DNA of 64,000 nt, taken from a virus. Lineage: Duplodnaviria; Caudoviricetes. The stretch is from IMG/VR virus record IMGVR_UViG_3300031853_000002, positions 32,001-96,000 of that record. One strand, 5' to 3'. This document shows positions 11,180 through 41,600 of this stretch, piece after piece (position 1 is the stretch's first letter; every line of letters begins with the position of its first letter). The notes under the pieces were generated by a model, which made no database searches, was not told where the DNA came from, and saw only the letters and a program-made list of their open reading frames with translations. The position numbers were made by a program, and so were the translations under genes.

Positions 11180-12061
11180 ATGGCAATAAGAAAACAATTA
11201 CAATGGGACGATAGTACAGATATATGGCCTATCACTGATGCCAGTGCTATACATTATACATATAATCCAAGTGATGCTTCTAAAATAACATCTCCAATTT
11301 CAGGAACATCATATGGATTAGATAATTATTTAAATGGATTATTAGATAGAGTATTAACAACAGATGATATAATAGCAGCTGCTACCAATGTAAACAAAGG
11401 TAAAGGTATACTGTATAATAGCGGAGATGGAATTACAGCTGTTGCTTTACCTTCAGCAGGTACAACTAATGCTTTTGTTAAATGTACATATACATCAGCG
11501 GGAGTTCTAAGTTTAACATTTGATCCTAATACTTATTTAGTTTCAACTACTAAGTATGCAGCTTCTTCATCAGTTGGAGGAGCTGCTACTACTGCAGTAG
11601 ATTTAACTGGAGGTGTAAAAGGTAATATACTTTACTAGAATGCAGCTAATGATACAGCTTTTTTAGCTAATGGATCTTCTGGATAGGTACTTAAATGCAA
11701 TGGAAATGCGGCTCCCTCTTGGATGACTATAGAAAATTATACTACAACAACCATTGCTGCAGCTAATTATAGTCTTTCTAATGCAGAATGGAAAGCAGTT
11801 AGTACAGCATTACCAACAAAGACCGGTACATATGCACTTTATATAGATGATTCTACTAATGGTTCTTATGCGGGAATATTTGCAATAGAAGGAGGAGCTA
11901 AAGAAAAGTTGGACGAAATTCCTTTACATTGGGCTACTGCTACAACAACAACTGCAGATAGTGCTCGCATATATGCAGCAGTAAAAGAGGGTAAATTATA
12001 GTTATCTTCTAATACTAGTGGAACATATAATTTAACAATTAAATATAAGAGAATAATATGA
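11180..12061 (+). CDS. Tail fibre-associated protein, ~293 aa (code 15)
   Basis: Joins ORFs 11180 and 11723; ends TGA overlapping ATG 12058. GNILYQNAANDTAFLANGSSGQVL fibre motif. Confidence 0.8.
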
Positions 12062-15000: not shown

Positions 15001-15450
15001 CGAACTTCTAATGCAATGTGTTTAACTATGGGAGTAAGTAATGATAATTATGGGTATATACAAGTTAAAGGAGGGGGTATAACTACTCCAGGAAATTTAG
15101 TAATTCTACCTGGAGGTGGTAGTGTACATATTGGTAATGCTTCTCCTGTTACTAGTTATATGCTAAATGTAGCTGGAAATTGTGCAGCAACTAACTTCTA
15201 CACCACTTCTGATGCACGAAAGAAACAAAATATTTCCATATTCTCAGAACATATCCGTAAATTCCAATTAAAAGATACAGGAAAATGGTATTATGGAGTT
15301 ATTGCTCAAGAAGTTCCAGAAATATTTAGAAATGGAGAAGAAGGTAATATGACAGTCAATTATAATTCTGTACTTAGCTATTATGTAGGTGTGCTAGAAA
15401 ATAAGATAAAGCAATTAGAATAGAAAATTAAATATTTAGAAAACAAGTAA
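12058..15450 (+). CDS. Tail fibre/spike with C-terminal intramolecular chaperone (peptidase S74-like), ~1130 aa
   Basis: Joins ORFs 12058, 12472, 13282 and 14998. YLPLSGGTLSG and GNVGIGTTSPSTKLHV motifs; TTSDARKKQNI, YGVIAQEV and VNYN chaperone motifs; coiled-coil end. Confidence 0.88.
13810..14337 (+). repeat. Exact 39-bp direct repeat (13810-13848 and 14299-14337) inside tail fibre gene
   Basis: gcaggtaatgcagatacccttgatggttatcatgcatca occurs twice (AGNADTLDGYHAS); 15-bp partial copy at 12790-12804. Confidence 0.95.
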
Positions 15451-17408: not shown

Positions 17409-17438
17409 AAAGGCGGGCAGAAATGTCCGCCTTTCTTT
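17409..17438 (+). terminator. Rho-independent terminator
   Basis: aaaggcgggca-gaaa-tgtccgccttt hairpin followed by ctttatt. Confidence 0.85.
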
Positions 17439-17443
17439 ATTAT

Positions 17444-20400
17444 ATGAATAAATTTATAGAAATTATTTCCGAGTTGAGACCTAAGAACGGTCAAAACTTT
17501 GCTATAGCGGATGTAAATAATTTACGTGGTGGTTATATACAAGCAACCACTATTGCTGAAAGAGATGCCTTTCTACTTACAAACAAACTAAAGTATGGAA
17601 TGCTTTGTTATGTTAAAGAAGTACCTAATGATACTCATATGTTTATATATAGAGGTAATCAATGGGAAATATGGGAAGGACAAGGAGGTTCTGGAGGAGG
17701 AGGTTTATCTCTAGTTGTTGTTGATGATCTAGAAGAATTAGAAACCAAAACTGCATTACAAATGAGAGGTCAAATAGTCTATATAAATAGTCTTGATGAC
17801 CTACGTTTTTGGAATGGATAGTATTGGGAATCATTTAGAAAAATTTACATATAGAATACTCCTCCGGATGATAAAGGTGGAATATGGATTGATACTTCTG
17901 AGGAGGGTTATCAATCTTCCTCAGATATTATTCAAGATATGCTGAGGGTAATTAATATCCTATAGCAAAAAGTTTAGAAACTAGAATATATGAGGACTGA
18001 GATTGATCCAGGTGATTTTACAAATAGTATGTATACATCATAGGATGAAAAACCTTCAGAGGAACCTCACTATGGTACTTCACTAGAAGAAGATAATGAA
18101 ACACAATAGAATAATTCTCAATTTGAATTATCTGAATCGCCTGAACCTGAATACTTAAATGATGAGTACTCTCCGAATACTAAATGTTTAAAGGTTAAGA
18201 GTGGTACTCAAACTTATATGAAAAACCATTCAGATGATTTTGCTGAGAGAGAATTACTATGGTGTTATGATACTCAAACTTTATGGATTAAAGACCCAAA
18301 AACTTTACAATTAATAAAAATTGGAGCTACTGGTGGTGGCTCTGATGAACCTATTATAGACGATACTATGGATGGAATAATTCAAGAAACAATTAGTAAT
18401 TATAAGAGAATCACTGGTATTGAGTTTGTTGACATGATGAATAGTAACAATCTTTATGTTCTTAGAGTAAAGAACGGTGATCTTACTTTAATAGATAAAT
18501 CACACAATGTACTTAAAACAGAATAGAAAGTACTTTCTTCTGGATTATATAGTCCGTTATATTATCCTTTAAGTGAACATTCTTCAGTTGAAAGTCCATT
18601 CGTGTATATAAATATGGTATATTGTGGAGGTGACTCTAATAAATATAGTTACAATCCTGTATCCCATAGTTTTATAGAATTGTGTAATATTTCTACTCAA
18701 GATCTTAATCTTAATGGCCTTTACTTACATTATTCTGAAGGTTCTGCAGGAGTGAATGGACGTCAATGGATAACTCTTCCACTTACTGGACATATTCCAG
18801 CTGGCAGTACTTTCTTAATAAGATGTGCTCCTTGTTCTGTATATGACTCTAATACTACTATTTTACGTATTGGAGAACCTGATATGGAATGGAAATATAC
18901 AGATACTAAAAATCCAGAAGTACTTGAACAAGCTGCAACAAACGAAACTCCTGCACATTCAGTATGGGATGAAAATAAACTTTTAAAAATAGGATATTCA
19001 TGTTCTATTTATTTAAGTGGAGGACTTGAAGATGTAGATCAAGAAGATTACTCAGCTTAGATGGCTACTCCATTTGATAATAAAGTTCTTACTACTACAT
19101 AGTTATTTAATGCAGGAAACGTAGCCAAATACTTTATAGATTTACTTGGAATAGGTGAGGGAATGGAAGCTTGTGGTAATCCATTTAATAATGTAAGAGA
19201 AGGACTTACACCTAATAATTGTCTTATTTTTAGATACTTTAATATGGATCCTGTTAAATAGGCACTAAAAGCACCTTCTGCATTAGACAACAGTGCTAAC
19301 TTGCAATGGACATATTTTAATTTAGCTAATATAGCTCCACAAGTAAATATACAAGACTACAAACCTTGTAATTCTAAAGAAGGCAAGAGCTTATTCTTTA
19401 ATAAGGCTAAACTTGTTGAAGGGCCTAATGCAGTTACTTGCTCATTTGGATGGAACGCACATACAACACGCTGTTTTAATTGGATTTCTAAAGGATACTA
19501 TGATGAATTTATAAAGATTTGGTTAGATGGAACAGAAGAGTCTGGAGCAATAGTATATGAGTCCTTTAAAGAAGGAGATAATCGTGATGGTAATGGTCGT
19601 AATTGGGACAATCCTATCTATAATAGAATTAGGAATGTGTCCACCTCTGGAGAGGATTATACTGTTCATAAGTTTATACATGATTTTCCTGAGCCTGTAG
19701 ATACTTAGGTATATAACTATAGGGTTGGTAGAGATGGTTATTGGTCTGATACACACCAATTTACTATGAGAAATCGTGATAAAGTAATTGAAAGAGGATT
19801 CCAATTTGTACAAACCACAGACTAGCAGGGATTCCATGATGAAGAATATGAAACTTGGGGAGTTACTGCTGACTTTATAAAGTAGGATGCTCAGTTAAAT
19901 CCAGAAAATGCCTATGAATGGCAAATGAATACAGGAGACCAAACACAAAATGGAAACAGACTTAATGAATGGCTTGCTTTTTATAGATGTGGTAAGAACT
20001 TCTATAGAAATATAGAACAAATGTTCACTATAGGAAATAATGACTTATGTTCTGCTGACCCTAAAGTTCTTGGTACAGGAGAAGATCTTAATAAAGTAAA
20101 TCCAGAAAACATTAACTTTTTCTTTACATTTGAATTTCCTTATGAATTACCAGAAGTAGATAGTAATAGTAAATATATTCCTTCTGTTTATTCATTTATA
20201 TATGGTGATACTTATTTCCTATGTATGAATTCAGAATTTACTCTTACTACACAACAAGATTTATATAATGTATCTAGTAGTTATAGTGCCGATGGAGATC
20301 CAACTGGGCCTACTGGTATTTATAGTATTATAAAACAATGGTGTGAAAATGATCTTACACATATAGATAACAAGATAAAATGGAGGGTAGCATTTACACA

Positions 20401-21322
20401 CGACAATCCATTTACATTACTTACTAAAGCATAGATTTATGGTACATCAAGTGGTGACACTGTAAAGTATAATTATCTTGGAGCTGATATGCAAACTGAA
20501 AACGTTTCATACAGTAGAGGAGGTTCACATCTTAATTCTGTAGGTAATTATTGGTTTAGTAAGTTTCTAGAAGATAATAACTTTAGACTATGTATTGGAG
20601 GACATAAACACACATATACATGTTCACGTCTTATGAGAGATAACCCAAATAACAGAATGAAGCCTTTTGTGTATGATCCAGAATATCATTTAGATAGTCA
20701 AGGATAGCCGGTATATCCAGCTTGGTATAGTAAAGTTGGTGATGCAAGAGATCATTTAATGCAATTTGGAGATTTACATGACGGACAAGGAAATGAACTT
20801 ACATATGTAAAATACGTAACATTACAAGCTACAGGATTTAAAACAACATCTAATAAGGAACTTCCTACAAGAAACATTCCTTGGTTGGAAGCTTATTATC
20901 CTGCTAATGGTGATGCTCCAACTAAAAATAGATTTAGTTCTGATAAAAAGAATGCAGGATAGAACTATCCACATTATATATTATGGAATATAGGTAGAGG
21001 AACCGAAGTGAAAGATCCAACAGGTTCTACAACAGAAAGACCTAGAATTCTTGGAAGAGTATTTAAGACTTAGCCTGTTACAAATAGAAAAAGTGGTTGG
21101 ACTTATTCTTACAATATTCCTTATACTTAGTTAGAAAAGATTCCTGGAAATGGATAGGATAATCCTTCTAATAATATAATTGTAGAATTAAGCTATGCTA
21201 CTGATTCTAGTTCTGAGCCAGAGCATGAAGATTCTTCCACAGAGAATAGTGTTTACTCAGTAGTAAATGCTGAATTAACAGGTAATAATGGTGATCAAGT
21301 AACTTTATTAAATAGTAATTAA
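17444..21322 (+). CDS. Large protein with lamin-tail-like domain and purple-acid-phosphatase-type metallophosphoesterase domain, ~1292 aa (code 15)
   Basis: Joins seven ORF fragments. YINMVY..HSFIELCN..LNGLYLHY (LTD-like); metal-binding motifs TTDQQG (first Q=TAG 19823), NTGDQTQNG, IGNND, FTHDNPF, IGGHKHTY. Confidence 0.85.
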
Positions 21323-22938
21323 TGGCAGTAACTAAAATATTGGTGGACGGAGAGGAAGTACAAAGCCTCTCCACACCAGTTAGATATACGTTAAAAGGTA
21401 ACGGAAAACATAAAGTGCAATATGTAATGGACACTGATACAATTAAGGCTGAAGCCTTTAAAAATTGTGATATTGAGAAAATTACTATTCCACATACAAT
21501 AACAGAAATTAAGTAGGATGCCTTTAAAGATTCTGATATTACACAGGTGGTTCTACAAGGAACTTAGAAGAAAATACTAGCTGATGGGGTAATACCTCAA
21601 TAGGCTACACTTATAGCTAGTAAAGAAACAGTCGGATATTATAATAAATATAATGCTCAATCATAGGTAAGTAAAACAAATGATTTTGTATCAGATATTC
21701 CAGTAGGCTGTGTTCTTTATGAAAGAAGTAACGGTGAACTATATACTGCTGAATATGATAGTAATATAACTGATTTAGCCTTAGGAGTTTGTGTTATTCC
21801 TAAAGGATTATTTGATGAACATGCACATTTTATTTCTCTTGAAAATATTGTTTATGACAATACAGATGGACATGTAAAAAGTTGTGAAAATTACTATGAT
21901 GAATGGTGTATGTTTGCTCCAAGATTAACAGGAGGAGATGGATATCTTTGGCATCAAGATGATATTGAATGTTATTCACAAATTCCTTATTGTGGATTAC
22001 TTTATCATGTAGGAGAATATAATAATCCTATAGAATATAATACAATAGAAGAAATGCCAGACTTAGTCAGCACTAACAAGCCTTCTGGTAACATGAGCTA
22101 TACTGAAACTGTAGACTTTAAGTTTTCCTATGATATATTAAATGTTTATGATTGGAGTAGTAAAGGTACAACTCCATTTGTAGAATGTTGTCAGGATGGC
22201 AGTGCATCTACATATGTTCTTCCTGGAGGTATGAGTATGACTAATCCTTATTATAAAGGAAGTTATTATACACCTCAGACTGTATCAGTATAGGCTACAT
22301 CTGATCAATCAGACCATAAATATCGTTATGGTAGACATTATTACTCTCCATGTCCATATATGCAAGTAAGTGATAGTGATGATGTAACAGCTAATCCAAT
22401 TCTTCTTAAGGACTTGCCTCCTTCATCTTTAGTAGGAGATAGAGGAAATCCTTATAAGTTTTATGGATCTGCTAATGAATTCTTAATACCAAATATAATA
22501 AGCAAGTGTACAAAGCCAACAGTGAACACAAATGGGGATTATTATACTGTTTGGCAAATAGGAACTGCAGATGGAGGAACTCCTACATTCTTTCCTGCTC
22601 CATATTTATGTTATGAGTATGCTCCAGGAACTGGTGCAACTCAACATCAATGGGCATTAGGTACTCCTCTTGAATGGATATGTACATTTACAAAGATAGC
22701 TAAAATACAAAATATTCTAGGAAAGTTAAACTGTCCATTATTACCAAGTAAACCTGCAGACCTTGTACAATCTAGGAATTTTACTAGTTATACTGGATCT
22801 GGAGCTGGATGGTATTGGGGAGGATTAATGGTTAATGATGGAAATTGCTTCTTATTTGATGGAAATTCTCGTAGAGTTGAAAGTATGATAACAACTAATC
22901 AACCTAGATTATCAACAAGACCATTTATAGTAATATGA
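21322..22938 (+). CDS. BspA/LRR_5-containing protein, ~538 aa (code 15)
   Basis: TIKAEAFKNCDIEKITIPHTITEIKQDAFKDSDIT BspA-like repeats; joins ORFs 21322, 21910 and 22360; TAATG and ATGA coupling. Confidence 0.8.
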
Positions 22939-25900
22939 GTAAAATAAAACATTGGGATGAACGAACTCAATAGTGGGTTATTGACGGTGCATCCAATGCT
23001 GCTAATATTGAGCTTACCAATCCTGGTTTCTTAGACTAGGATGGTAACTCAATATCAGTAGACTAGGGATTCACTAAATTATAGAATAGATTATTTCAAA
23101 CAGAAAAGAATGTAGCCTGGATCTACCAAAATGGAGCCAAAGGTGGCAGTGGTGGAGGAGGCGGTGGAGGTATTGACTCAGTATCTTACTCTATAGAAAT
23201 AGAAGAAGGTAATAGAGTTTATACATCCTCAAGTTCTGTGACTATACATATTACAATTACAGGAGGAAGTGTAAAGAAAAACTTCAATGTAATAGTTAAT
23301 GATGAAAATGGAAATACTAAAGGAAGTTATGTTATAACTAGTTTAACTCGTTCAGAAATAACAATTAATAATCTTACTAACTCTACTAATAGACTTACTA
23401 TAAGTGCTAATTCTGGACAAAACTATGCTACTCCAACAACTATTACTATTATAGCAGGAGCTATTAAACTTACATAGACTAGTGTTCCTAATAGCACAAT
23501 TTACCCATAGAATCCAGTTGGAAACACAGTACTTACTGCTTAGAATAGTACTGATAGTAATCTTAATATAACTGTTTTATGTAATGGTCAATAGATAGAT
23601 AATTTTGATATACAACAAGCTAAAGAAACTCAATTTAGAGTAGATTCAATAACAACCTTTTTAGAGGAAGCAAAAAATACATCCATAGGAGAAACATTTA
23701 CATTTGAAATATATGCTATAGGTGTTCTTAATGACAATATATTACGTTCTGAAAGTGTAATATTTAGTTGTGCAATTACACAACCCCTTGTATTATATAT
23801 ATTTACTTATGGAGTTGATAAAACAGTTCCAACTAATAATATAGAATTGGATAATCTTAATAAATTTGTATACGGAAATAGTATCCAATTTAATTATCAA
23901 CTTACATACTCTCAAATAGCTTTTTCTTATTATAATGTATATTATACAGTAACTCCTTGTTATTTTGAAGAAGGACAAATAATAGGTGATACATCTAGAG
24001 AAATATCAGGAGTTATAAATAAAGTTATTAAGGGTATCAATCAGTAGTTTTTATTTAATACTTCTTCTCTTCCTGATAATACTATATATAATCCAGATAA
24101 TAATCAATATAGATTTGTAAGAGTAACTTTACATGCTATATCTGTAGATTCTAATAAGCTTGAAGATACTGAAGTATTATACTTTACATTATAGGAAGCA
24201 ACTACTAAATATATAACAGCTACTAATCTTAATAATAGTTTATTTGCTTATTTCTCTCCAGTTATGGGAGTTCCTACTGGTAACATTACTACTTGGTAGT
24301 ATGATAATAAAAATACTAGATTTCCATATAGTAGTCAAGGAGTTATACAAGATCGCTATATTACTCTTCAAGGTCATAACTTGTCTGGTTTTATGTAGCA
24401 AACAGATATGCAGGGAATTCATTTACCTGGTAAATCTTATGTAGACTTAGAATTAGCTTTATTTAGTGAAAATGCCAATGAAGTGAATCTACTTGATGGT
24501 AATGGCTGGACTTTGTCTTTTACATTTAGAACTGACTCAAATGTGGATGGTTCAGATGTTGTGGTTAGTATGGGTAAATACAATGGAACTACTCTTACAG
24601 CTGGAATAGAAATAAGAGCTAATAGAGTTATATATGCTGTACAAACATCACAATATGGCTTAAACCTTACGAAAGGAGATGTTACTACTGTTGATATAGT
24701 TGGACAAAGATATGTAGGACCTGGAGATACAGAAAGGGCTCCTAATCATTGGTTTATTAAAACTTATGTAAATGGAGTACTTTCTCTTATTACATCACAT
24801 ACTCAATCTTAGATGTTTAACACTGATAATAGTGGTACATATGGATGGTATTTCAGTGATTATATACATCTAGGTGGACGTGTGATAAATGGAGAAGTAA
24901 CAGATGCTTGTTCTGTACATGTCTATGATTTTAAAGGCTATTCTACAGCTCTCTCTGATAATGAAATAATTCAAAATTATATATCATCTACTATATATAG
25001 TCAACTAGGTCCTAATGATAATCCAGATATGTCTTTATAGAATGAATTATTACAGAATAATTTCATTTAGATAGGAACTGATGGAAATTATCATAGTATT
25101 CTTTTTGATGAGAATGATGAAACAGAATATAAAGATGCTAATTCTTTATTAAATAGTCTTATAGGAGCATTAGCTGAATCACGTATACCTTATCCTATTG
25201 TTGTGGTAAATCAAATTAATGGAGATTCTAGATTCTTAGGAATTACAGAAGCTAAGTTTAATGAAGATCTTAAAAAAGATGTTATGGCTTTAAGATTTGC
25301 TATAAATATAGATTACTATACAATGGGTAATGCTACTCCAATTCGTATTGCTAATAATCTCGGTAATGGAATGAGTATTGGTATACAGGGTACTTCTTCT
25401 CTTAGATATAATAGCAAAAACTACGAAATTTATATGGGACAAGACGACGAGGGTAAAGATGTACTTGTTCAAATGAGAGAAGATTGGCTTCCTGAAAATA
25501 GATATACTCTTAAAGCTGATGTGATGGATTCTTCTCATGTTAATAATATTCTTATTGGTAGTATTGTTAATGGACTTGTAACTACTGAAGATGCTCAAGG
25601 GCAAACAGTAAAAGTAGTTCCAATGGATAATACTCCTCCAATGTCTAAGAGTGGATATTAGTATGCAAATAAAGTAAAACATACATCTGAGGGATATCCT
25701 TGTATCTTATTTATAAAATTTAAAGCTACTGGTAGTGATATAAGTACTTGTCATTGTATGGGTATTTATAACTTTAACTTAGGACGTTATGCTTACTATA
25801 ATCTAGGTCTTAAATTATTAAGTAGTATTACATATATTGATGAAACTGAAACTTATCCAAGAACTGTAGCTTCTTATACAGAGGAAACAGAAATAGAACC

Positions 25901-28900
25901 AGGCTCTCCTGTATATTCTATGGAAGTATAGGAAAACAGTGCAATAGCTATGTTTGACTAGGATGATCCTGATATTCTTGGAGAAGGTGTATTTGATTTT
26001 CCTTATGATTCGGATGGACAGGGTATGACTAATCTTGGAAAATTACTTAATTTTTTAGCTTCATTTGGATACAATATCGAAACAGATAAAAAGAAATATA
26101 TACAGAATGATTGGAGAACTCCAAAACTTAAAAAGATAAAAGGAACTTGGTAGGAGTCTGGAGAATATTATCCATCTTGTGACCCAAGAATCTATGTTAA
26201 GTCTACTCTAGATTCATATATGAACTGGAATAATATGGTAAGTTATTATATGATTACTATCATATTTGGACTTGTAGACTCAATGGCTAAAAACTTAACA
26301 TTACGTTCTTGGACTAGATCAAGTAATGGAGATAATATATGGTACATGTGTTTCTATGATATGGATACTGCTTTACGTGTTAATAATGTTGGTGCTGAAA
26401 CAGTTCCATATAATGCGCATTTACATAGATATTATACTAACATAGATTCTATAGCAGAAGCGCGTGTAACAAACCATTGTCCTTCTATTTCAGGAGTATT
26501 TAATTAGGAGTACTCTGGATATAACACAAGACTTCAAGAAATTGTAGAAAATTGTGTTCTTGATAGTACAGATGCTAAAACTTTACAGTCTGTTTATAGA
26601 GAATTACGTACTAGCCTATTTCCTGACCCAGAAGCTTTTATAGAAAGGTACTATGTAGGACAAATAAATAAAGTAGGAGCTGCACTTTATAATTACGATT
26701 ATTATCTTAAATATTTATAGGTAGAAAAGACTTATAATCCTGCTACAGGTAAATATGGTGATAATACATATAATTATAGTGAAATATCTTACTTACATGG
26801 TAATGGTAGCGCTAGTGTAAAAGACTGGTTTGTAAAGAGAATAAGATTTTTGGATGGAGTCTATGGTCTAGGTAGTGGAGGTTCTAATGGAATTAATGGA
26901 ATTACAAATACTCCACTTGCTAGTAGATGGATGGATAATAATGCAACTTATATAACTAATGTAAGTCCTACTAGCATATCACTACAGCTTACAGCTGAAA
27001 GTTAGATGCGTACAACTATATCTACTTCTGGTGAGGCCAACTCTTTCTGGATTGACGAAACTCCTAGAAATTATAGAGTTAATAATGTAGGTTCTAAATA
27101 GGTTGTTACTATATATTCTAACTTATTTCTTACAAATCTTGGAAACTTTAACCAATTTACTTGGGATACTATAGGTTCTCTTAATTTTCCTCTTATTAAA
27201 GAGCTTAGTCTTAGAGATTAGACTAATATTAAAAGTGACAACTTCCTAGTTAATACTAATAATCTAGAATCTCTTGTAAAATTAGATTTACATGGACTAA
27301 CTCTTTTAGACTCCAATTCAACTGTAGTTTATAAACCTTTAAATATAGCTTAGAGTCTTCCGAATCTTGAAGAACTTGATGTATCAAACTCTTCATTTAA
27401 TGAAGTTCCTTTATCAAGTAGTTCTGTTCTTAGAAAATTGAACTTGTCTAATACAAGAATTAAAGATCTTAATTATTCTGATTAGGCTATGCTTGAAGAA
27501 TTAGATATTACTGGATGTAATGAATTAGAAACAATTACTTTGAATAACTGTCCAAAACTTAAATCTTTAACAGTTCCTCAAAGTGTTAAAAGCATATTTA
27601 TAGGTAACTGTCCTGGAATGGAATCTATATATGCTGAATATCAAGGTTCTTAGCTTAGGATAAGTAGTCTTGTTTCGGTTATTATATCCGCTTGTCCTGG
27701 ACTTAAGTATATAAATCTTAATAACTAGAATAATCAAGAGTTGGAAATTAATCTTGTAGGTGCTACAGGTCTTGAAAATTTATAGTTATCCAGGATAATT
27801 ACTACGAATATTACATTACCAGCTAAGGCTAATTGGAATAGTCTTACTAATTTGAATCTTAATAATAGTAGTATAGGTAGTTTTACTTATGACAACACAG
27901 CTAATGTAAAATATTTAGATCTTAAACATTTTGAAAATCTACAATATATTAACTTATCAGAAAATAAAAATGTTATAGGTGTAAGATGTCCTAATATATA
28001 GAATCATCCTGTTAATTTAGTTGGAGGGGCGTTAGCTGAATGTGCTAATCTTCAATATTTATATGGAAATTTTGTTATTACAGGAACTAGAGTATTTATG
28101 AATTGTAGTAATCTTACTATTAATACAAGTCGTATATATAGTGAGTATTCAGTACTCAATTATCCTGTCCCTTTTGTTGATGATGAATAGGCTTGTAATA
28201 TACAGTTTTCTTCAACTTTAAATAGCACAGAAGAAATGTTTAGTAACTGTTACGCATTATCTGGAAGTGATTTTAAAATGATTATGCTAAGCTTAACAGA
28301 TAATATTACCTCTCTAAATAAAATGTTTCTTAATTGTTCATCTGTTGATGCTGAAATTAACTATGACCTATTTAGACATTGTCCTAACGTAACTAATATA
28401 ACTTCTTTTGCTGAAAATACCTTGCTAAGAGGCGGAATTTATTCTAGAACTTCAGAATATAATGAAAATGATTCTACTACATGGGGAACATTTGATTTCT
28501 TACCTGAATTAGAGCAAGCCTCAAATGCTTTCAGTGGTTCAGCAATACAATATATAGATGATAATGTATTTGCTCCTTTGAATGGTTCATATATTAATCT
28601 TAGAGAAGCTGACTATATGTTTTCTAATTGCTTTGACTTGGAAAGTTGTTAGGTTGTAGATAAAAATAATATAGTAACTAATGGTTATTTACATTCTAAA
28701 ACCTTCTTTACAAATCTTAGAAATTTAGGAGCATTTCCTAAAGGCATGTTTTCGGGATGTAATAAGGTTAAAATGTTAATAGATTCTACACAAATAGGAG
28801 ATGTTACTTTCGATTATTTATATCACTGGCCTTATTAGATAAATATTAGAACAATAGATTCTTCAATTTATTAGGGAATTAATCTCGAAGGTACTATACA

Positions 28901-30629
28901 TGATAATGTATTTGGAGGAAGACTTAATTCAGATGGAGAATATAATATAGTAAACTTTGCTGTTATAAATTCTCCTTTTGAAGATAGTGGTTCTAATATT
29001 GAATGTGACTTAAATACTATGAGTAGGATGTTTGAAGGTCTTAGAAATACTTTATTACAAGCTAAGTATGTATTTAGAGGCATCAAGTTTACTAACTCTG
29101 TAATTCCTAATGATATATTTGAGGGATGTACAAAGCTTAATAATATTCAAGGATTCTTTTCTAATCCAACTCTTACTAATGGAGGTTAGACATTTGTTTT
29201 TCCAGATCCACAATTATTTGTTGATTGTATTTCATTATCAAATGCTTCATATTTATTTGATAGTAGCTATAATCTAAATATATAGCTTGTAGGAGAAGGA
29301 TTTAAAAATTGTGCTCTTACTGATGTAAGTGGTATGTTCTACAATTCGGGAGTATTTGGAATGATTCCTTATAGATTATTCTATATGGAAAGAGATGGAA
29401 ATATTAGACAAACTATTGATAATATAACTGGAGTTTTCTATAATTGTTATAAGCTAGGCTATACAAAAGATAGAAAGATAGATGTAGGAAGTATATATGA
29501 AGAAGATGATATAGAAAAAGTTACAACTTATTCTGACGGAGTTATTATAAATCCTGGAACAAGAGTTCCTTTCCAACTTGATTTTACTAATTTTACCGGA
29601 GATGATCCTTGGTATATAGATGGAAGGGATTGGAAAACAATAAATCCAGACTTAGAAACTTCTTCTTATTATCCAAATTTATATACTACAGTATTTTAGT
29701 ATGATGAGTTACAAGCACAAACTCGTTTAGATTCTAGAGATAGAGAGGTTGGATATCAAAACTATATGTTTCCTGCGGATTACTTTAGATATTGCAGTTC
29801 ATCTTGTACTATGAAAGAGGCTTTTAGAGGACTTACATATATTCCTAAATATATTATTCCTAATGATGAAGGTGTAAATCACTTAGTAGAAGGAAATGAA
29901 GTAAATGGTCTTATAGGAAGACTTCCTTGTAAGTTATTCAGTGCTAATACTTTAAATACTAAATTTGAATCTGTATTTTCAGATCTTTAGTTCTGTGCAT
30001 TTATTAACTTTAATAGTTATAAGATGAATGAACTTAATAATGGTATATATAATATAGATCAAAGAGGTATTAAATATCCTCCAGATTTACTTAAATCAAA
30101 TACTCTTCTTACTTCTATTTCAGAAATGTTTAAAGGAACTTTTATAGAAACTGGAGTTGATATTAATTCTGATTTATTATCTAACAACACATTACTTACT
30201 GATATATCAGGTCTCTTCCAAGATGTCTTATTTTCTGAAGAGAATTATGAAGGTGCATCTATTGGAGAAAACTCTTAGATAGATTTTAATATATTCAAAA
30301 GTTGTCCAGAACTATAGGAAGTTAGTAAGTTATTTAGTGTATCAAGCACAATTGATTACTCAAGAGGTCTTAGAATTATACAAAGCACTTTATTTGATCC
30401 TATTAGTAATGAAAATATAGCTAATCCTCGTATAGTAAGTATACAAGGAATGTTTAATAATAATAGATTATTAAGAGGATCTATACCACTCTTCGATACT
30501 GGTAAATTCACACGTATTAGAAATGCAGGTAGTTATGTTGAAGGTGTGACTAAAGAAAATATTACTAATGCTAATGTATTTATTAGTATGCATGAAGCTT
30601 CTTGGATACCACAAACTTGGAGAATTTAA
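22935..30629 (+). CDS. Giant protein, ~2564 aa: LamG-like + CotH-like kinase + LRR + BspA/DUF285-like repeats (code 15)
   Basis: The frame-0 fragments between 23238 and 30278 join across TAGs. IGIQGTSS..SKNYEI, YTLKAD, GIYNFN, GLVDSMAKNL, WYMCFYDMD, WFVKRIRFLD; LEELDVSNS-type LRRs; MFxNC repeats. Confidence 0.85.
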
Positions 30630-33600
30630 TGGATAATTTAGTTAGAACAGATACTGTATTTGGCAAAAGAGTCAATTTAGTAGGTAATATTTCGGCGGAC
30701 TTGGTGTTAGAATCTCTAGGAAAGGTCTACATCAAGTCCCGAAATAAAGCCTAGACATTAGAAGAACTTATTACTAGTTTAGTACGAGAAGATCCTAATA
30801 CAAGTACGTCTAGGGTTAAAGTAGTAGAAGGAATTGAAAATCTTGATACTTCTGAATTTAAAGATGGAACATTTGTATTTGATAAACTAAGTAATATATT
30901 ATATCTATATTTAGATAATGATCTCCTAGAACTTATAAATGTTGCTCCTGAAGGAGAAGGATATGTAAAGCGTTCAGGAGACACTATGACTGGAAGATTA
31001 GCTATCTATGTAAAAAATGGCCCTCCTTTATATGTAAATTCTGCAGATTTAGTTGAAAATTTAAATGCATAGTATCTCAATGGAGAAACTGCAGATAAAT
31101 TTACAAGAAGACATAGAGACGAGAAAATAAGTGGTAGTTGGACTTTTTAGAAAGTTACTACATTCGATTAGGGAGTAAGAATTTATAAAGATGCTGTATT
31201 GCATGGTAGTATAGGGTCTCCAAACTTTTCAAGTGGATTTGGGGGATATGGTTGGAGAATGGATGCGGATACTAATACTTTAACCGTAGATAATTTAGTA
31301 GTTCGTAAACTTATGTAGGTTTATGAATTAGTTGTAAATAAGATATCTGCAACAAATGGTTCTTTATGGATAAGTAATGCAGGAAAAGTTACTGATGTAT
31401 GTAAATTATAGATAAAGCCATATAATTTCTTTACAGATACTGAAGAATATTAGTTATTTTGTGCTGGACTAAAAGAAGACTTTATTAAACTTACTGCAGA
31501 AATAACTAATGAATCTTTAGAAGCTGAGGCTTTCTCTACTTCAAGTGGAGATAATATTATAACAAAAGAATGTTGGAGTAGCAATACTCTTAGAAGTACT
31601 AAATTTATATTTATAAGGCAAAAAGGAGAAGATTATAGAGGATAGTACTTTGATGATCCTGAAGCTACTGATTATTCTATATTTCCTCTATTCAGTGAAG
31701 ATTTCAAATTTAATACTGTTTTTCCTATAATAACTAGGAATAATTATTAGACATTTAAATCTAATGAAAGAACTGCAAATTTATAGAATTACATATCATT
31801 TATATAGCCCTATTATAAGTACTTTGCAAATGGAGATTATTATTTAGTAACTTTTGATGGAGATTCTCTTCCGGTATTTAAAGCTGGAGATATATTACGA
31901 TGTCAAAAATGGACATATGGAGGTATTAAATATTATGATGCTATAGTTTGTAATTAGATAGGCAGCAAATATATAATACAACTTGCCCCATCATTTCTTG
32001 ATTAGAAGACTACTATAAGCTATAATAATGGACTTGAACCTACAACAATACAAAATGTAGATTCAAATAACGAGAATTTATATAAAAGTACTTCTAAATA
32101 TGAGAATGGAAATAATCCTATAGGACAGGTAGAAATCGATGATAGTCTTGTATAGATTGGAAATATATGGGATAGTCAGAGATAGAATGCTGTATATATA
32201 ACATCTACTGATGATGCTGCACCTTATATGGATGTATTATCTAATATGAATAGGCCTGATTACTCTGTTATATATTATGTTCCTATATATAGAACTACTA
32301 AACTATATAAATCTTAGTATAATTTAAGAACTTTTGCTGGTTATAATAATTTAGTAGAAATTCCTTATACAGGGGACTACTATGTTTAGGATATCAGTAT
32401 AAATAATTTTACTTGTGAATATGTATGCTTTAAACACAATGATGTAATATATTTAGCTACAGGAAAAGCTACCCCAAATATAGCAGGAGTACAAGTACTA
32501 CACTATTTAAATACTATTCCAGACAGATGCACAATTCTTGGAGAACTAAATAGCTCTTATATAACTTTAGAAACTACTGGAAAAATAAAATTAGAAAATA
32601 TAGATGGTTCTATAATATAGGAAGAATAGTTAGATCCATTAGTTATTACTTCTACTAAAAATACAAAATCACGATTTGGTAAATTAGATGGAATACAAGA
32701 TGAAATATTCCCAACAGATAAACAACCATATGGTTATGGTCTTTATGGTTAGAATGTATTTCTAACTGGAGAATTCTATCTAAATAATGGATAGGCTGTT
32801 GCAGATATAGGAAAAGAAGCTATGACATTTGCTATAGCCTCATCTAAAATGGGAAATGCTGCTATAAATTTATTAAGAGCAGACCAAATTAGAGCTAATG
32901 ACTTAATTAAAGCTTCACACTATAATAAAGGTACTTTGAAGACTGCAGGTATGTATATAGGCAATGATTCTAATGGAAATCCTGGAATTGTTATTTGGGG
33001 TAATAAAATTCTATTTGCTACCAATGATTTGGAATTTAATGGATATGTACAACCTACAATGTTACTATCTGATGGAAAAATTCAAGGTAAATATTTGAGT
33101 GTTGATGAAGCCCATGGCTCTGTTGATGCCTAGGTTCTTACTAGTGAATTTACAGTTGATAATGTTAAATATACAAGTTTAGACTTATCCCCAGGAACAG
33201 TAAGAGTTTATAAACCTAAGATGTAGAATACTGCATCTAATGGAACAATATATTATACTGAGAGTGATTAGATATAGTATATAAGAAGGTTTATGTTAAA
33301 TAATGATAGCTCTTAGATAAGATGGTTAGTAGTTAATCCAGATGGTTATCCATTATCTAAGAATGCTGGAGGTAATTATGATACTGTTACTTATTTAAAC
33401 TTTACATATTTTAACTCAGATAATGAACCTGTATCTTATTCTGATGGTAATCTTCCAACCAATATAGAAAATGCTCTTATAAATGATTATAGTACTCCGC
33501 TTAAAGTATGGGCCTTAGAAAAAGGAGGAAAAGGTAATTTAGGAGGTTCTACTCTATACTGGAATAGTACTGGAAAAGTAGTAGTAAATGGAATTTTGTA

Positions 33601-36592
33601 TAGTACTGAAGGTAATATAGGAGGATTTACACTTAGTAATAATAGCTTATATTTAAAAAGGAATCCTGAACACCCAAGTGATCTTATACTTTCTAATAGT
33701 GGTTATAAATGGGATAATAGCGAAGCTTCCTTTCCCTATATGTAGCTTAATTCTGTTAATAGTGAAGGTAAAATAGAATTTAGTACCATATATACAAGTA
33801 GAGGATTTTACTATCAAGGAGAAGGTGGACTCCTTATGCAAACTCCAGGAATGGTATTCCAACTTACTATAATTCCTATTATGTATGACAATGGTAACAC
33901 ATGGGGACTTTTTGCTAGATTATCTGGAAAAGGAGTTTTCTCTATTATAAAGATGACCTTTGATGATGGATTATTTATTATTAACTTTCCATAGCTGCAA
34001 GAATCTAATAATTCAGAGCAAGCAGATTGGTTTGTTCGTTCTTATCTAAGAGGAGATTTATTTTTCTATGCTACCGGTCATAATTTTGCAACAACATAGA
34101 CCCCATGGAATAATGGACTTAATGCTTATATATTTAACCCTGATAAAATAGATTAGCACCACTCTGAATTATTATGGTCAAATGATTTTGATGATAAGTC
34201 TAAAGTAATGCATAATCATGCAAGCGTAGATTAGTTTGGATTTATAAGTAATAACTATAATTTTAATAGTTATGGTATAGGAATAAATGGTCCACTTCCA
34301 ACTAGATGTCATTTTGGAGCTGTAATTGGACAAAGATTAGATAATAAAACTCTTATTCAAAGTGAAACATCTGGAGGTCTAGTGTAGATTGGAAAATCTG
34401 AAGCTATGTTCTCTAATGATACTTGGTATAATGCAATAGTTGTATCAACAGCTGATGATGATGAAGTTAACTTTGGAGGTTTTACTTTATGTTGTATGTA
34501 CTCTCCAGGATTCAGTGATAGAGAAAGTGCTATAATTGAAGATGCTGCATATACGTCTGAAGATATATAGGAATATACAGACAGGTAGACTTTATAGCAA
34601 CAAATAATCGATACTTATGGAACTTCAGGAGTTAGATATACAGAAGTTGTATCTGAAAGAGATGATCTTAGAGCTTCAATGACTACTGCAGAATAGGTTA
34701 CATATGCAAGTGATTTAACTAATATAGATAATTATGTATCTAATATAGCTAGTATTGCTTCAGAGGTTAGTAATAACCTTAACAAATTTACTGTTTCTGA
34801 ATTAACTAGCAAGAAAAGTGCTTGTGATGAATATTATAGTTAGATAATAACCATTTTAGATTCTATACAGAATAGAAGTGATACAGATCCAGATGCTCCT
34901 GATGCTGCTTGTACCTGTAGCTTAGGTGGAGATTATCCAACTTTAAGTAGAGCATATTCAGCAAGTGGAAGTAGTACAAGTATTGAAGTAGCTGGCTTTA
35001 GTCCAAGTGATTGTTCTATAACTCTTACACATGTTAAAAAGTCTTCAGGAGATGATTGGATAGATATAAGTAGTAATGATTATAACCCATTATATGACTT
35101 AACTGCTTCTAACGGAATTATAAGTGCCAAGATAAGAACTAATTCAAGTACCTCTACAATAGAAAGACGTTATTACTTTAATTGTAAAACTTCTGGAGGT
35201 GAGTACGATTACTTTACCTTCTGTCAATAGGCTGGAGAAAGCGAATCTGGAGAAGAACAACCTACTGATTCTGATTTAGAAGCACTACTTCCAACATTTA
35301 ATACCTTATTCGATTCTTAGATACAATCCGGAACTAGTTTATATGACTTCTTAGCAGATTCGTTATCTACTGCTAATAGTATGAAGTCTTCGTATAATAT
35401 AAGTACTATTACTAACGGACCTATCAAATTCTTAGGAAGCGGTTATGATGATACTGCTTTTCAAGGATTTTTTATGGGAATGTTACTTACTGCACTTTTC
35501 CCATTTGAAGGATCTGGAAGTATTGACTACAGCAAGGCAAGTAATAGAAATAGTGGAGCTCTAGCTGCTGCACATAAAACTTATGGAGCTAGACTTACAG
35601 ACAGTGTATCTAGCTACGAATCTAAATATAAAGGAGAAATTCTTGCATCTATAGTATTTGCACAAATGATTGCTAACCCTTCTTTTAGAAGTACATTTAA
35701 GAATATAAAGAATAGTGTAAGTTTATCAGGATTTGTTAATTGGTTTAGTTTCTGTGATAGTGATGAATTTCTACTTTCAGCAATAGCTCCAGATGGACAT
35801 GAAATCTTTGACACTCCAGTATCTAATAACTATACGACTGCAACTATAAGTAGTGTTACTAACTTAGGAGAAAGAGATGAAGTAATGTATAGAGATGGTA
35901 AGGCTTCTAGAAAAGATGATGGTAGCTATGACTCTAGCGATGGAGGTATAGCTAATAAAGACACTAGTAATGTTGATAATCATGATAAAAATCATGATAG
36001 AATAGGATATTTTATAGATATTTATGGTACTGCTACAAGTAACACTGTATCTATAAGTACTCCTTCTAATATTACTCATAGTTCACTATAGTCTGATAGT
36101 TCCTCATGTTGGGAAGATCCAAGCAGCTCACATCCTGGACTTTCTGGCTTATCTTATAGCTATACTACATATGCTAAGTATTGTTTATTAGACCTAGCTT
36201 GGAAACCTGGAAGAGATACTGTTAATAATACTAAGAGTACTTCTGGTAGTTGGTTTAGACAAAGACCTTTTAGTGCTCATAGTGATGATTCACCAATGTC
36301 TTATGCTAATGGAGATAGTGATGTTGGCAATACAGATACTACATCATATCCATCTGGGCATTCTGGTTATAGTTGGGGAACAGCATTAGCTTACTCTACT
36401 CTTAAATCTAACTTTAGTACTTCTAATATAAATAATCTATTTGCAAGAGCTTATAAATTTGGACAAAGTAGAGTCATAGTAGGAGCTCACTGGTAGTCAG
36501 ATGTTGAAACAGGTAGATTAGCTGCTGCATGTTCATTTGCTTAGATGTGTGGTAATAAATTATTTATAAATCAAGTTGATTTAGCACAATGA
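30629..36592 (+). CDS. Large tail protein with BACON-like domain and C-terminal PAP2 (class A acid phosphatase) domain, ~1987 aa (code 15)
   Basis: No TAA/TGA found in the frame where read. N-terminal FSSGFGGYGWR..LTVDNLVVRK..VYELVVNKISATNGSL tail motif; C-terminal RQRP, SYPSGH, SRVIVGAHWQSDV. Confidence 0.85.
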
Positions 36593-36900
36593 AATTTAAT
36601 GTAAAAGAAAGATTGTTATTAATAGGAATGTTGCCTCAGTAGGGAAGTCTTTCTGAAATGGTTGATATTTATGATCTAGTAAGAGATTTAAAGCTCTCTG
36701 AGGAAGAGAAGGGAGCTATCTCTTACATAGAGAATAATAATTATGTTAAATGGGATTTTGATAAAGACCCAAATAAAGATATAAATATAAGTAGTTCACA
36801 GATGAAAATTATAAAGGAGGCTATTGAAAAATTAGATAAAGAAAATAAAATTAATTTGGAAATGATTCCACTTATACAAATTATAAATGACTCAGTATAA
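36589..36900 (+). CDS. Hypothetical protein, 103 aa (1 TAG)
   Basis: ATGA-coupled start [20 protein letters not shown] extends ORF 36658. Confidence 0.8.
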
Positions 36901-37411
36901 TAAATTAATTGCTCATGTCCTTAAATGGGAAGGAGGTTGGGGAAATGATCCGGCCGATAAAGGAGGACCCACTATGAAGGGAGTTACAATAGCTACGTAT
37001 ACAGCTTATTGTGCTAAAAAAGGCCGGCCTATTCCAACATTAAAATAGCTAAAAGGAATTACTAAAGCTGAATGGGAAGAGGTTTTTAAAACTATGTTTT
37101 GGGATAGATGGAAAGCAGACCAAATAAAAAATTAGTCTATTGCTAATCTTTTAGTTGATTGGGTATGGACTAGTGGTATTTATGGAATTAAATTTCCATA
37201 GAAAGTTCTTGGTGTAACTGATGATGGAGTTGTTGGACCTTAGACTTTATCTGCTATAAATAATTATCCTAATCAAAAGGAACTTTTTGATAAGTTATGG
37301 TAGAGACGTAAATAGCATTTTATTTCTATTGCTAATTCAAGACCAGGAAATCAAAAATTTCTTAAGGGGTGGCTTAATCGTTTAAATGATCTTAAATATA
37401 GTGCAGAATAA
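36887..37411 (+). CDS. Endolysin, glycoside hydrolase family 108 with peptidoglycan-binding C-terminus, 174 aa (6 TAG)
   Basis: [31 protein letters not shown] and FLKGWLNRL motifs; missing from the ORF track. Confidence 0.92.
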
Positions 37412-38640: not shown

Positions 38641-41600
38641 ATGATTGTAGCAAATTTTGTAACAAACAGATCTACAATGAGTGACACTAGAACTTATGAG
38701 GATTTCTATAAGTTCCTTGGTACTCAACCTTATAAACTAGGCGTTGTGTCTAGACTTTATCCTGAACTAACTGCTTCTTACTTAACAGAATCTCTTAGAA
38801 ACATTTTCTATCAAAGTAGAAAAGGTGGTAACAAGTATCAGTCTATAGATGCTATGTACTTTGAATGGGATGTTGAAACAAACTATATTAAGAGAGTAGA
38901 GTTTGCAGCAGTTCCAGAAACAGATGGTGCAGATGGTCAAGAAATCGTTATGGCTTTCAAAGAAAGATACTATGAAAAGTATGACATCTTTAAGATTGAT
39001 GAAACTGGGCAGCAATGTTTTGTTGTAGCAAGACCTGTAAGAAAGGCTGATAATTACTGGGAAGTAACTGTTCGTCTTATTGATAATGACTATAAGTCAG
39101 TTCTTGACCTTAGTGGTTGTCAAATTGGTATGACTACAAGATTCTAGAGCAATGCTGTACCTGAAATGCATGAGGAAGGTTTGAACACTTTATATGGTAA
39201 ACACCTAATTTTTACATAGCTTTCCTCCGCTGCTTAAGCAGTGTAAAATTAAATAAATATTTCTAATTGCTGGAACACCCACAGGGTCAATCAGCAGCGA
39301 AGCCTTAGAGATTACAAGCAAATTTTGAAGTACTAAGGAACGTTCAACGACTAGTCCGAAGGACGTAGGAGAAATAAACTCCGAAATGGAATAAATCTAA
39401 AACTTAAATAAATTATGAAATATATTGTATATCAAACTGTTAATAAAGTTAATAATAAGATATATGTTGGAGTTCATGGAACAGAAACTCCTGATGAATT
39501 TGATGGCTACCTAGGAAATGGGGTTAGTATATATAGGCCCGCTACATATCTTAATCCTAAAACTCATTTTCAATATGCAGTAAAGAAATATGGCGTCAAG
39601 AATTTTATAAGAACTACTCTTAAAATATTTGATAAGGAAGAAGATGCCTATAAGATGGAAGCAGAGATTGTAAACGAGGAATTTCTTAAACGAGAAGATG
39701 TTTATAACTTGGCTTTAGGTGGAAAATTAAATTATGATAATTTACATAATCCTAAGAAAAAGGTATATATGTATGACTTAGATGGAAATTTTGAAAGAGA
39801 ATTTGATAGTGTAAACTCAGCTGGAAGGTTTCTGAATCCTTCTGCTGCAGGAGCAGGACATCTTCCAAGGGCTATAAAAGAAGGACATCAATTTCTTGGA
39901 CATCAATTTTCTTATGAAAAAGTTCCATTTATGAAGAAATTAAAATGCAGAAAAATGGGAACAGTTGATAAACCTTATATAGGAGGAAAAGTAGGACGCT
40001 ATAATGATGAAGGAAAACTACTTGAAACTTTCAATACAATGACTGACTGTATAAAAGCAGGTTATAAAAATGCAAAACTTGTAGCACAGGGTAAGCGAGA
40101 ACATTGTAAAGGCTTTATATTTAAGTATTTAGATTAAGATATAGTCTGAACACTATGGCAACATAGTGATAACAAAGTGTATGTTAAGTATTAGAGCAAT
40201 ATTGAGAAACATCGTAACTATATTACAACTCACCGTGTTGATGACAGTTATTCTGCTCAGTATGGTGCATTTGAAGATAAGTTTATTTCTATTGGTGAAG
40301 GAAAGGGACAAGGTAGTCTTACTGAAACTATCTATAGAATGGATAAGATCGAAAAGAACTTACTTGATAACTTCCTATATGTAAGAAATAATGGTTTACT
40401 CTTCAACAAGACTAACGTCGATGTAAATGGCAAACCAACTATTTCTGATCCAGATACAGGTAGACCTATCTATATTGGTGATGGTATAATTCCACAGGTA
40501 GAGAGATTCGCAAGTAAGTATGCATTTGTTAAACTTACTATTGAAGTTTTCAATGTGGTTATTGCTACTCTTAATGAGAAAGCTAAGAACCCAACTGGTA
40601 ATAAGTACATGTTCATCTGTAATGAAAGAATGTGGTCACTTATTCAGACTGTTCTTGGAGACTTCTTAGCTAAGTATAAGACAGAAGGTACATATATTTA
40701 TAGTAAGCAAGCTAATGGCTACGTAAAGGTTGGTGCAACATTCGATTCTTATGAATATGGTGGCAACCAAATTACCTTTAAGGTAGATAGAACATTCTCT
40801 AGAGAGTATGGTCAAGATAAAGGTTATTGCTTATGCTTAGATTTAACTGCTGATGCTACTGAAGCTGAACCACCAATTCAAATGTTTACACTTAAGGGTG
40901 GTGACTTCATTTCTAATAAGTATATTGGTGTAGGTGGACGTAATGGATTAAGCTCAGGTGAAGTTGCTTCTCCTGTTGCTGCTTCAAAGCTAAATTTATT
41001 GGCGTGCTAATCAGTAATGATTAGTTTAAATTTTCCTTAAATGCTGGAAACTCCTTATAAAAGGACAATCAGCAGCTATTATATACATGAAGTCTGTTAC
41101 AGACTCTGATATATTGTAGTTCAACGACTAGTTCAACAAGAACGTACATTCAAGTGAATGGAAATGGGAAATAACTTAATTATGAAATATATTGTATATT
41201 GTACTACATGTACAGAAAATGGAAAAGTGTATATAGGTGTACACAAAACGGAAGATCCAGATAAATTTGATGGTTATATAGGAAATGGTATAGAAGTAGG
41301 ATGGAATATAAAAAATCCTCATACTGCTTTTCAATATGCACTTAAAAAATATGGGTATTCTAAATTTAAAAGAGCAACATTATATGTTTTTGATAATGCA
41401 GAATCTGCTTATTCTAAAGAAGCAGAGATAGTAAATAAAGACTTTATAAAAAGACATGATAATTATAACACTTGTCTTGGAGGTATTCATGCTGGAGTTA
41501 TATATGATACTCTTTATCAATACTCTTATGAAGGAAAACTTATTAAAGAATGGGACTCAATAGGAGAAGCCATAAGATATTATGGATGTAATTCTAATAG

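Follow-up and report, generated by a model that had tools for sequence, protein, structure and literature searches.

Why should a phage encode, within four consecutive genes lying between fibre genes and an endolysin, one protein with a kinase fold and two with phosphatase domains? The question is raised by a 19-kb stretch of the window analysed here, by which we mean the whole 64,000 nucleotides from base 32001 to base 96000 of the 163-kb virus record IMGVR_UViG_3300031853_000002. The proteins of genes 1-4, labelled P0001-P0004, are a metallophosphoesterase (MPE), a smaller protein with a short BspA-like segment, a giant that joins a CotH-type kinase fold to a solenoid of leucine-rich repeats (LRRs), and a tail fibre that ends in a PAP2 phosphatase domain. 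Because the nearest named relatives of the window are Crassvirales, we regard the phage as crAss-like, a member of a group that ranks with the most abundant gut viruses of humans and whose host recognition is poorly understood. The original prediction, made from the sequence alone, held that all four proteins form a single virion-displayed system that edits phosphates on virion proteins or on the host surface. We find instead that the MPE and the giant are a conserved pair present in many phage lineages, joined at this locus by an inserted BspA-like gene and a rare PAP2-tipped fibre, and that these last two are what is new here.

Results

The MPE and the CotH/LRR giant form a conserved syntenic pair

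The four genes are laid out as follows.

17444-21322, plus strand: gene 1 (P0001), with a conserved N-terminal domain, a poly-Gly hinge, and lamin-tail-like, Fn3-like and MPE parts; 19 TAG codons read as Gln
21322-22938, plus strand: gene 2 (P0002), 538 aa, BspA-type LRR-like only at residues ~30-130; 5 in-frame TAGs
22935-30629, plus strand: gene 3 (P0003), 2564 aa, with an N-terminal domain, a poly-Gly hinge, beta-rich/lectin-like parts, the CotH fold and an LRR solenoid; 40 TAG codons read as Gln
30629-36592, plus strand: gene 4 (P0004), a tail fibre with conserved N-terminal two thirds and a lineage-specific C-terminal module; 42 TAG codons read as Gln

To describe the surroundings of gene 1 relatives we drew on 80 IMG/VR loci fetched with a profile of the MPE, many of which come from one sample set and which are therefore not 80 independent events. 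At every one of these loci the MPE gene is followed on its own strand by the giant, directly in 78 and past a BspA gene in the remaining two, and the spacing between MPE gene and giant is 60-200 nt. Queries with the MPE and with the CotH protein match 36 INPHARED records each, about 35 of them common to both. Records with both genes include crAss002, cr60_1, cr52_1, cr107_1, cr109_1, cr113_1, cr7_1, cr124_1 and IAS virus, and further six phages of B. thetaiotaomicron of ~180 kb, 14 Lak megaphages, Bacillus phage G and a Bohxovirus; wherever an INPHARED record was checked, the giant lay next to the phosphatase gene and downstream of it. Only PV036416 has a CotH match without this MPE. Both genes are missing from MT835470 and MT835492, which have a similar capsid region, a result backed by a positive control, although these records may be incomplete. 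Among GTDB contigs, fetched with the CotH profile, the MPE gene stands upstream of the giant in all eight loci with enough upstream flank, including contigs binned as Firmicutes. The pairing of MPE and CotH/LRR giant is thus a real and conserved arrangement across many phage lineages.

The closest counterparts with names are crAss-like. In crAss002 (gp19 and gp20), cr60_1 (gp49 and gp48), cr124_1, cr7_1 and IAS virus we find the same two families in the same order and on the same strand as in the window, the phosphatase directly upstream of a giant of ~2600 aa and both within the structural/lysis block, which is where the pair always resides in the Crassvirales. Relative to the window, these phosphatases are 34-36% identical to gene 1 and the giants 25-27% identical to gene 3; what sets the window apart is the inserted 538-aa BspA-like gene, the only thing that splits the pair here, and the PAP2 tip on the downstream fibre. 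Relatives encode the cassette under a code in which TAG is Gln, one in which TGA is Trp, or the standard code.

Two observations concern the spread of the pair rather than its composition. In-frame TAGs are seen in L013, L037, L051, L068 and L069, in-frame TGAs in L044 and L047, and neither in L014, L048, L056 and L072. Distant MPE-CotH pairs also occur on a 400-kb contig of an Erysipelotrichaceae metagenome-assembled genome (MAG; L103) and on a 360-kb contig of a Bacilli MAG (L104); these copies could be prophage, megaphage or cellular, and they would bear on the origin of the cassette.

The other two genes are not linked to the pair

Does the association extend to all four genes? Whereas MPE and giant are present in 80 of the 80 IMG/VR loci, a homologue of gene 2 is present in two and a PAP2 domain in none. 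The two nearest relatives of the window, G001 and G002, keep the order MPE-BspA-CotH-fibre with a fibre that lacks PAP2, none of the cassette-bearing INPHARED phages has a PAP2 match, and gene 2 has no match among INPHARED phages. The proposed kinase/phosphatase module therefore stands as far as the MPE and the giant are concerned, but two of its four parts occur independently across relatives and are not linked to it.

Nor do the gene overlaps hold the four together. The junctions do read TAATG, ATGA and TAATG, as had been reported, but a further ATGA joins gene 4 to the next gene (36589-36900), so that the chain of overlaps runs on to the lysis side and delimits no module; coupling is not special to these four genes. 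A four-part system would gain some credit from the facts that all four genes overlap and are co-oriented, that domains for handling phosphate, their motifs mostly intact, are present in three of the four, and that an orthologous fibre, P0275, is also PAP2-tipped. Against this stand the counts of PAP2 (0 of 80) and BspA (2 of 80), G001 and G002, which share the gene order but have no PAP2, the cassette-bearing INPHARED phages without a PAP2 match, and a cassette that in all other lineages manages with neither the BspA-like gene nor PAP2. We consider such a system highly improbable, and for annotation the locus is not to be read as one.

The genes are read with TAG as glutamine

When TAG is read as Gln, the stretch resolves into four consecutive long open reading frames (ORFs) on the plus strand that overlap at each junction: 17423/17444-21322 (1299/1292 aa), 21322-22938 (538 aa), 22935-30629 (2564 aa) and 30602/30629-36592 (1996/1987 aa). 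Under translation table 11 the same stretch yields only fragments of up to 236 aa, so the earlier statement that the genes are visible only with TAG as Gln was correct. All four genes stop at TAA or TGA. Translation with code 15 also holds up against homologues: six TAG sites of gene 1 align with Gln in 17-22 of 22 homologues, among them the invariant Q613 and Q1180, and at sites 144, 368, 613, 801 and 1180 Gln is found in at least 19 of the 22. Use of TAG as Gln (code 15) by this phage is directly supported by this alignment.

Gene 3 carries a complete CotH-type fold in the predicted model

The giant was described in the original prediction as a CotH-like kinase with LRRs, and both parts are recovered.

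25185-26867, plus strand: complete CotH-type kinase fold (P0003 residues ~751-1311), by model, VIA-align and Foldseek
27348-30626, plus strand: LRR solenoid of ~1100 aa, by Pfam LRR families and family profile

By Pfam the kinase assignment is marginal. The CotH model (PF08757) has a cut-off of 23.8 bits; gene 3 reaches 24.0 and the domain alone 23.8, exactly the cut-off, and four of 14 gene 3 relatives give Pfam CotH matches, the best with an E-value of 1.4e-8. Structure is more telling. Residues 750-1400 were modelled with a pLDDT of 75 and a pTM of 0.79, and the model was compared with 48,161 chains by VIA-align and with PDB entries by Foldseek. VIA-align places it next to B. cereus CotH (5jda; Z 23.2, rmsd 3.3 Å, 344 of 359 residues), the next-best chain being PI4KII with a Z of 9.6, and Foldseek finds only 5jd9 and 5jda significant, with a probability of 1.0. 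Judged from this model, the CotH fold is unambiguous despite the marginal Pfam score. A search of PDB sequences with the CotH region gave no match at E<=1 for the single sequence and chance matches only for a domain-only profile, while a profile of the whole giant family matched LRR and lectin entries only.

An exhaustive HMMER search for the CotH family returned 580 representative clusters; among the best 150 of the 580, the proteins are mostly giants of 2.2-3.6 kaa with the domain at about the same position. Across 40 homologues of gene 3 (26-44% identity) the invariant residues are QGT at 818-820, K828/N829, K860, D1115-x3-K1119-N1120 and D1142-x-D1144, the last two motifs falling within the Pfam-matched CotH core (profile positions 160-221). 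On sequence grounds, this layout is that of a putative kinase catalytic loop followed by a metal-binding motif. In B. subtilis CotH, the catalytic D228 and the metal-binding D251 are essential (PMC7821199, citing Nguyen 2016), and the D1115 and D1142-D1144 motifs are presumably their equivalents, a correspondence that we infer from motif order and the region of the Pfam match and not from residue-level superposition. The conserved residues suggest that the kinase of gene 3 is probably active. Compared with the Bacillus spore-coat kinase (PF08757; 5JD9, 5JDA), the gene 3 domain shares the whole fold, and the Pfam match spans the catalytic core, but identity is only ~10%, there are ~200 residues of insertions, and the domain is embedded in a 2564-aa lectin/LRR protein. 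The family profile likens the part N-terminal to the kinase to the carbohydrate-binding module of a sialidase (4c1w) and the part C-terminal to it to a long LRR solenoid, and it matches numerous LRR proteins of known structure, 4fs7 and 4gt6 from the surface of Bacteroides among them; several Pfam LRR families match residues 1472-1619.

The C-terminal part of Pfam CotH finds one more, weak match ~21 kb past the end of the window (G000:C1:117156-117461), within a 421-aa open frame; at 18.4 bits it is below the cut-off and probably due to chance.

Gene 1 resembles purple acid phosphatases with altered metal ligands

Gene 1 was correctly called a metallophosphoesterase, scoring 26.7 bits against a cut-off of 21.5 for Pfam Metallophos (PF00149), and belongs to a family of 1213 clusters. 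Two parts of it can be placed on the sequence.

18602-18832, plus strand: lamin-tail-like domain (LTD), with a sub-threshold Pfam score; PF00932 in many homologues
19415-21142, plus strand: Fn3-like N-domain and binuclear MPE core, by motifs, model and Foldseek

The lamin-tail domain reaches 23.7 bits where the Pfam cut-off is 34.3, and precomputed PF00932 assignments exist for many family members. An AlphaFold model of residues 640-1240 (pLDDT 86.5) matches plant purple acid phosphatases and phytase (1xzw, 1kbp, 6git) and PhoD (2yeq) with a Foldseek probability of 1.0 and a TM-score of ~0.6 on the target.

The motifs of the MPE, [ST]DxQG, GDxxQNGN[RK], GNNDL, H[DE]xP and GHKHT, are derived in comparison with these enzymes and at the same time invariant in 23-34 sequences with 42-84% identity to the window protein. 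Like gene 1, the plant enzymes (1KBP, 1XZW, 6GIT) and B. subtilis PhoD (2YEQ) consist of an Fn3-like N-domain and a binuclear MPE core, with the same order of five motifs and, judged by that order, six of the seven metal-ligand positions of purple acid phosphatases in common. They differ in that gene 1 has an invariant Gln for the Tyr ligand (GDxxY), GNND with an invariant Asn for the His of GNH[DE], and DxQG as motif I, and in that its MPE is joined in one protein with a lamin-tail domain and a fibre-like N-terminal portion. With this Tyr and this His absent, gene 1 is similar to purple acid phosphatases but not a bona fide member, and its chemistry may differ from theirs. How its residues are conserved argues for a working metal site.

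Gene 4 is a modular fibre with a rare phosphatase tip

Gene 4 had been predicted to be a tail protein with a PAP2 phosphatase, and so it proves: within the first 760 residues there are matches to PHROG tail-fibre families, such as phrog_33450 ('tail fiber protein'), and to tail fibres of Bacteroides phages, and PAP2 (PF01569) scores 36.3 bits against a cut-off of 27.2.

34889-36589, plus strand: C-terminal extension of gene 4 (residues ~1430-1996), missing from the G001 and G002 orthologues
36251-36538, plus strand: core of the PAP2/class A nonspecific acid phosphatase, by Pfam and alignment to solved enzymes

The domain aligns with solved class A acid phosphatases (9htz, 1d2t, PhoN) at E-values of 6e-14 to 2e-12, and class A enzymes are also its closest cellular relatives, being up to ~40-49% identical in the short cores that align. 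Motif 2 (PSGH) and motif 3 (SRx5Hx3D) are intact. Of motif 1 the RP is retained; phmmer puts a Ser at the position of the canonical Lys, and MAFFT aligns a Lys located three residues upstream of it and thus at altered spacing, K-x9-RP in gene 4 and K-x11-RP in P0275 where cellular enzymes have K-x6-RP. Motifs 2 and 3 and the RP of motif 1 are thus shared with PhoN, PhoC, the E. blattae enzyme 1D2T and 9HTZ, whereas the spacing of motif 1 and the position at the C-terminus of a tail fibre of ~2000 aa are not.

Such tips are rare. Among 5.8 billion proteins, in a search in which large fusions were counted, only two other large proteins have a related PAP2 C-terminus: P0275, an orthologous fibre with 52% identity throughout, and P0276, which has two PAP2 domains. 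A scan of IMG/VR for the PAP2 C-terminus found no relative. The fourth genes of G001 and G002 encode 1500 or 1503 aa without PAP2; the match to G002 runs out near residue 1420 and that to G001 beyond ~840, while the fibre N-terminus is ~66% identical to L009:83-4582 and L010:65-4573 over the first ~270-500 residues. Read as sequence, gene 4 and its relatives are a clear case of stepwise exchange of C-terminal modules on a modular fibre. The make-up of the tip is suggestive of recent import, with TAG accounting for 0.36 of Gln codons in the tip and 0.63 in the rest of gene 4 (Fisher p=0.08) and a G+C content of 0.343 against 0.302, but the difference is not significant.

In its architecture the fibre resembles the enzymatic fibre and tailspike tips of other phages (depolymerases, esterases), which likewise combine a conserved N-terminus with a swappable C-terminal module, enzymatic or binding, and are encoded at hypervariable loci that adjoin lysis genes. 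Here, however, the predicted chemistry is removal or transfer of phosphate and not glycan cleavage. Crassvirales tail-spike genes are known to be hypervariable and are annotated with glycosyl-hydrolase, phosphatase and CHAP domains (PMC10136315).

Gene 2 is an insertion with a short BspA-like segment

Calling gene 2 a BspA-repeat protein may hold for a small part of it: LRR_5/BspA (PF13306) scores 33.2 bits against a cut-off of 27.7, but the match is confined to residues 39-84. Weak matches to the Bacteroides BspA-like surface proteins 4fdw and 4fs7 extend over residues ~30-130, and residues ~130-538 matched nothing in our searches. The gene is a lineage-specific insertion between the two genes of the cassette.

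Discussion

What, then, might this stretch of DNA be for? On balance we think it probable that the 19 kb are the variable fibre/appendage part of a late operon, composed of a portable two-gene cassette, a BspA-like insertion and a modular fibre with a PAP2 tip, and that they work roughly as follows. The cassette would supply a phosphoesterase akin to purple acid phosphatases, with a lamin-tail domain, and a giant that combines a lectin-like part, the CotH fold and the LRR solenoid; in this sub-lineage only, the small BspA-like gene would have been inserted between them, and an otherwise ordinary modular fibre would have had its C-terminal tip swapped for a class A (PhoN-type) acid phosphatase. 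In both cassette families a conserved N-terminal domain is followed by a poly-Gly hinge. This feature, together with the sizes of the proteins, their LRR and lectin arms and the position of these late, TAG-gated genes beside fibre and lysis genes, makes fibre-like appendages of the virion the likely form of the products. Lectin, LRR and Ig-like arms would bind surface glycans of Bacteroidales, and the MPE and the PAP2 domain, each on its own, would remove or cleave phosphate esters on capsule or lipopolysaccharide (LPS) such that a receptor is exposed or reached. Since they need no cofactor beyond metals, the hydrolases could act from outside the cell. For the kinase, the most plausible place of action is the inside of the infected cell at a late stage, where ATP is available, and its target would be whichever polymer or protein the neighbouring MPE works on.

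That the two cassette proteins most likely work on a common substrate follows from their being gained, lost and kept together across lineages as far apart as crAss-like families, Lak megaphages, ~180-kb Bacteroides phages and Bacillus phage G. Conservation of the pair and invariance of the catalytic-type residues also make a functional link between a kinase-fold enzyme and a phosphoesterase plausible.

Several points weigh against this account. Some have been met above: the substituted Tyr and His ligands of the MPE, the altered spacing of PAP2 motif 1, the equation of the kinase motifs with those of CotH by motif order and Pfam match region, and the shared origin of many IMG/VR loci. In addition, the pair of Bacillus phage G sits among nuclease, RNR and GGDEF genes and not among tail genes, a context of DNA metabolism that implies the pair may not be structural. 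A kinase on the outside of the particle would lack ATP. BLAST comparisons among the four proteins and the upstream fibres revealed no shared N-terminal virion anchor, and neither the crAss002 paper nor a paper on new Crassvirales isolates contains proteomics or these genes. A bolder version, in which the MPE-CotH/LRR pair would be a virion-borne couple of writer and eraser working on a glycan or lipid of the host envelope or on the phage's own fibres, so controlling adsorption or host range in crAss-like phages, Lak phages and phage G alike, with the PAP2 tip recruited to the same task here, seems to us quite unlikely.

The main rival looks inward. By analogy with the spore coat, the giant might phosphorylate neighbouring virion or fibre proteins during assembly in the cell and the MPE might trim or reverse these marks, in which case the host surface would not be a substrate at all. 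CotH is after all itself a coat component that phosphorylates its neighbours CotB and CotG (PMC7821199). The strict pairing of kinase fold and phosphoesterase would suit such a role, as would the late, TAG-gated expression of both genes and the confinement of ATP to the cell. An inspection by eye, not a systematic search, revealed no obvious Ser-rich repeat of the CotB/CotG kind in the translations of genes 1-4, however, and the lectin-like and LRR arms speak for ligands that are external and variable, as does the fusion of CotH to hypervariable C-type lectins in other phages (PMC8008677); we regard this explanation as unlikely, if worth keeping in mind. Alternatively, the cassette might not be structural and might serve a diffusible or intracellular late function, for example in taking over the host, in countering its defences or in altering the envelope of the infected cell such that superinfection is blocked. 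The gene neighbourhood in phage G fits such a function, and envelope modification has been proposed for another family of phage kinases (Benler et al., PMC8008677). Yet in the Crassvirales the pair is always found within the structural/lysis block, proteins of 1200-2600 aa with N-terminal domains, poly-Gly hinges and LRR/lectin arms are typical of appendages, and neither protein family has a signal-peptide- or secretion-type family match in Pfam, so that we hold a non-structural role to be very unlikely.

Imagine, finally, that the enzyme-like domains were catalytically dead and had been reused as adhesins. The CotH proteins of Mucorales act as invasins, the MPE has lost both the Tyr that serves as ligand in purple acid phosphatases and the His of GNH[DE], and the first PAP2 motif is oddly spaced. 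If binding were all that mattered, though, it would be hard to see why six of seven metal-ligand positions, D-x3-K-N, DxD and both PAP2 histidines should be invariant across distant homologues; such invariance of catalytic-type residues fits catalysis better than a binding surface, and we rejected pseudoenzymes as the main explanation, a reading that we find barely credible.

How much of this is undescribed? We found no paper that describes the MPE-CotH pair or tests either enzyme, but public records already label both genes: GenBank product names include 'phosphatase', 'transferase', 'internalin-like protein' and 'spore coat protein-like protein'. CotH-family kinase domains have been noted as occasional in phages and 'currently unstudied' (Benler et al., PMC8008677). 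That the two genes stay strictly adjacent in crAss-like phages, in Lak megaphages and even in a Bacillus jumbo phage would suggest that phages share a step, as yet unexplored, which relies on phosphate chemistry and not on glycan cleavage. With cultured Bacteroides phages such as crAss002, DAC16-23 and SJC03 carrying the pair, the question is directly testable. As for the PAP2-tipped fibre, a rare instance of a class A acid phosphatase as fibre tip, it hints that phosphates of capsule or LPS may decide adsorption.

Neighbouring features

The original prediction also placed the four genes between fibre genes and the endolysin, and this is borne out on both sides by PHROG matches and sequence.

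7944-11039: tail gene with a phrog_5302 match
12058-15450: fibre-like gene
17409-17434, plus strand: terminator-like hairpin directly before the ATG of gene 1, with an 11-bp stem, 6 G-C pairs and a T-rich tail
36589-37411, plus strand: the next two genes, a 103-aa ORF (ATGA overlap with gene 4) and then the endolysin (phrog_315)

The endolysin itself (36887-37411) matches phrog_315 at 8e-39. On the fibre side, the gene at 7944-11039 encodes a protein of 1031 aa whose C-terminal 420 residues match phrog_5302 ('tail protein') at 2e-77.

The hairpin sits between a preceding gene of 150 aa and gene 1; one such site was found where shuffled sequences lead one to expect 0.2. As it covers the earlier ATG, 17444 is the likely start of gene 1, and the cassette may open a transcription unit that is separately regulated or reached by read-through.

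Just downstream of the lysis genes, two ORFs (39415-40137 and 41158-42249) match PHROG homing endonucleases (phrog_314; E-values 2e-27 and 8e-20) and contain no TAG codons, although they lie among genes that use them. In the relative cr60_1, a reverse transcriptase gene adjoins a tail protein annotated as similar to 'major tropism determinant'.

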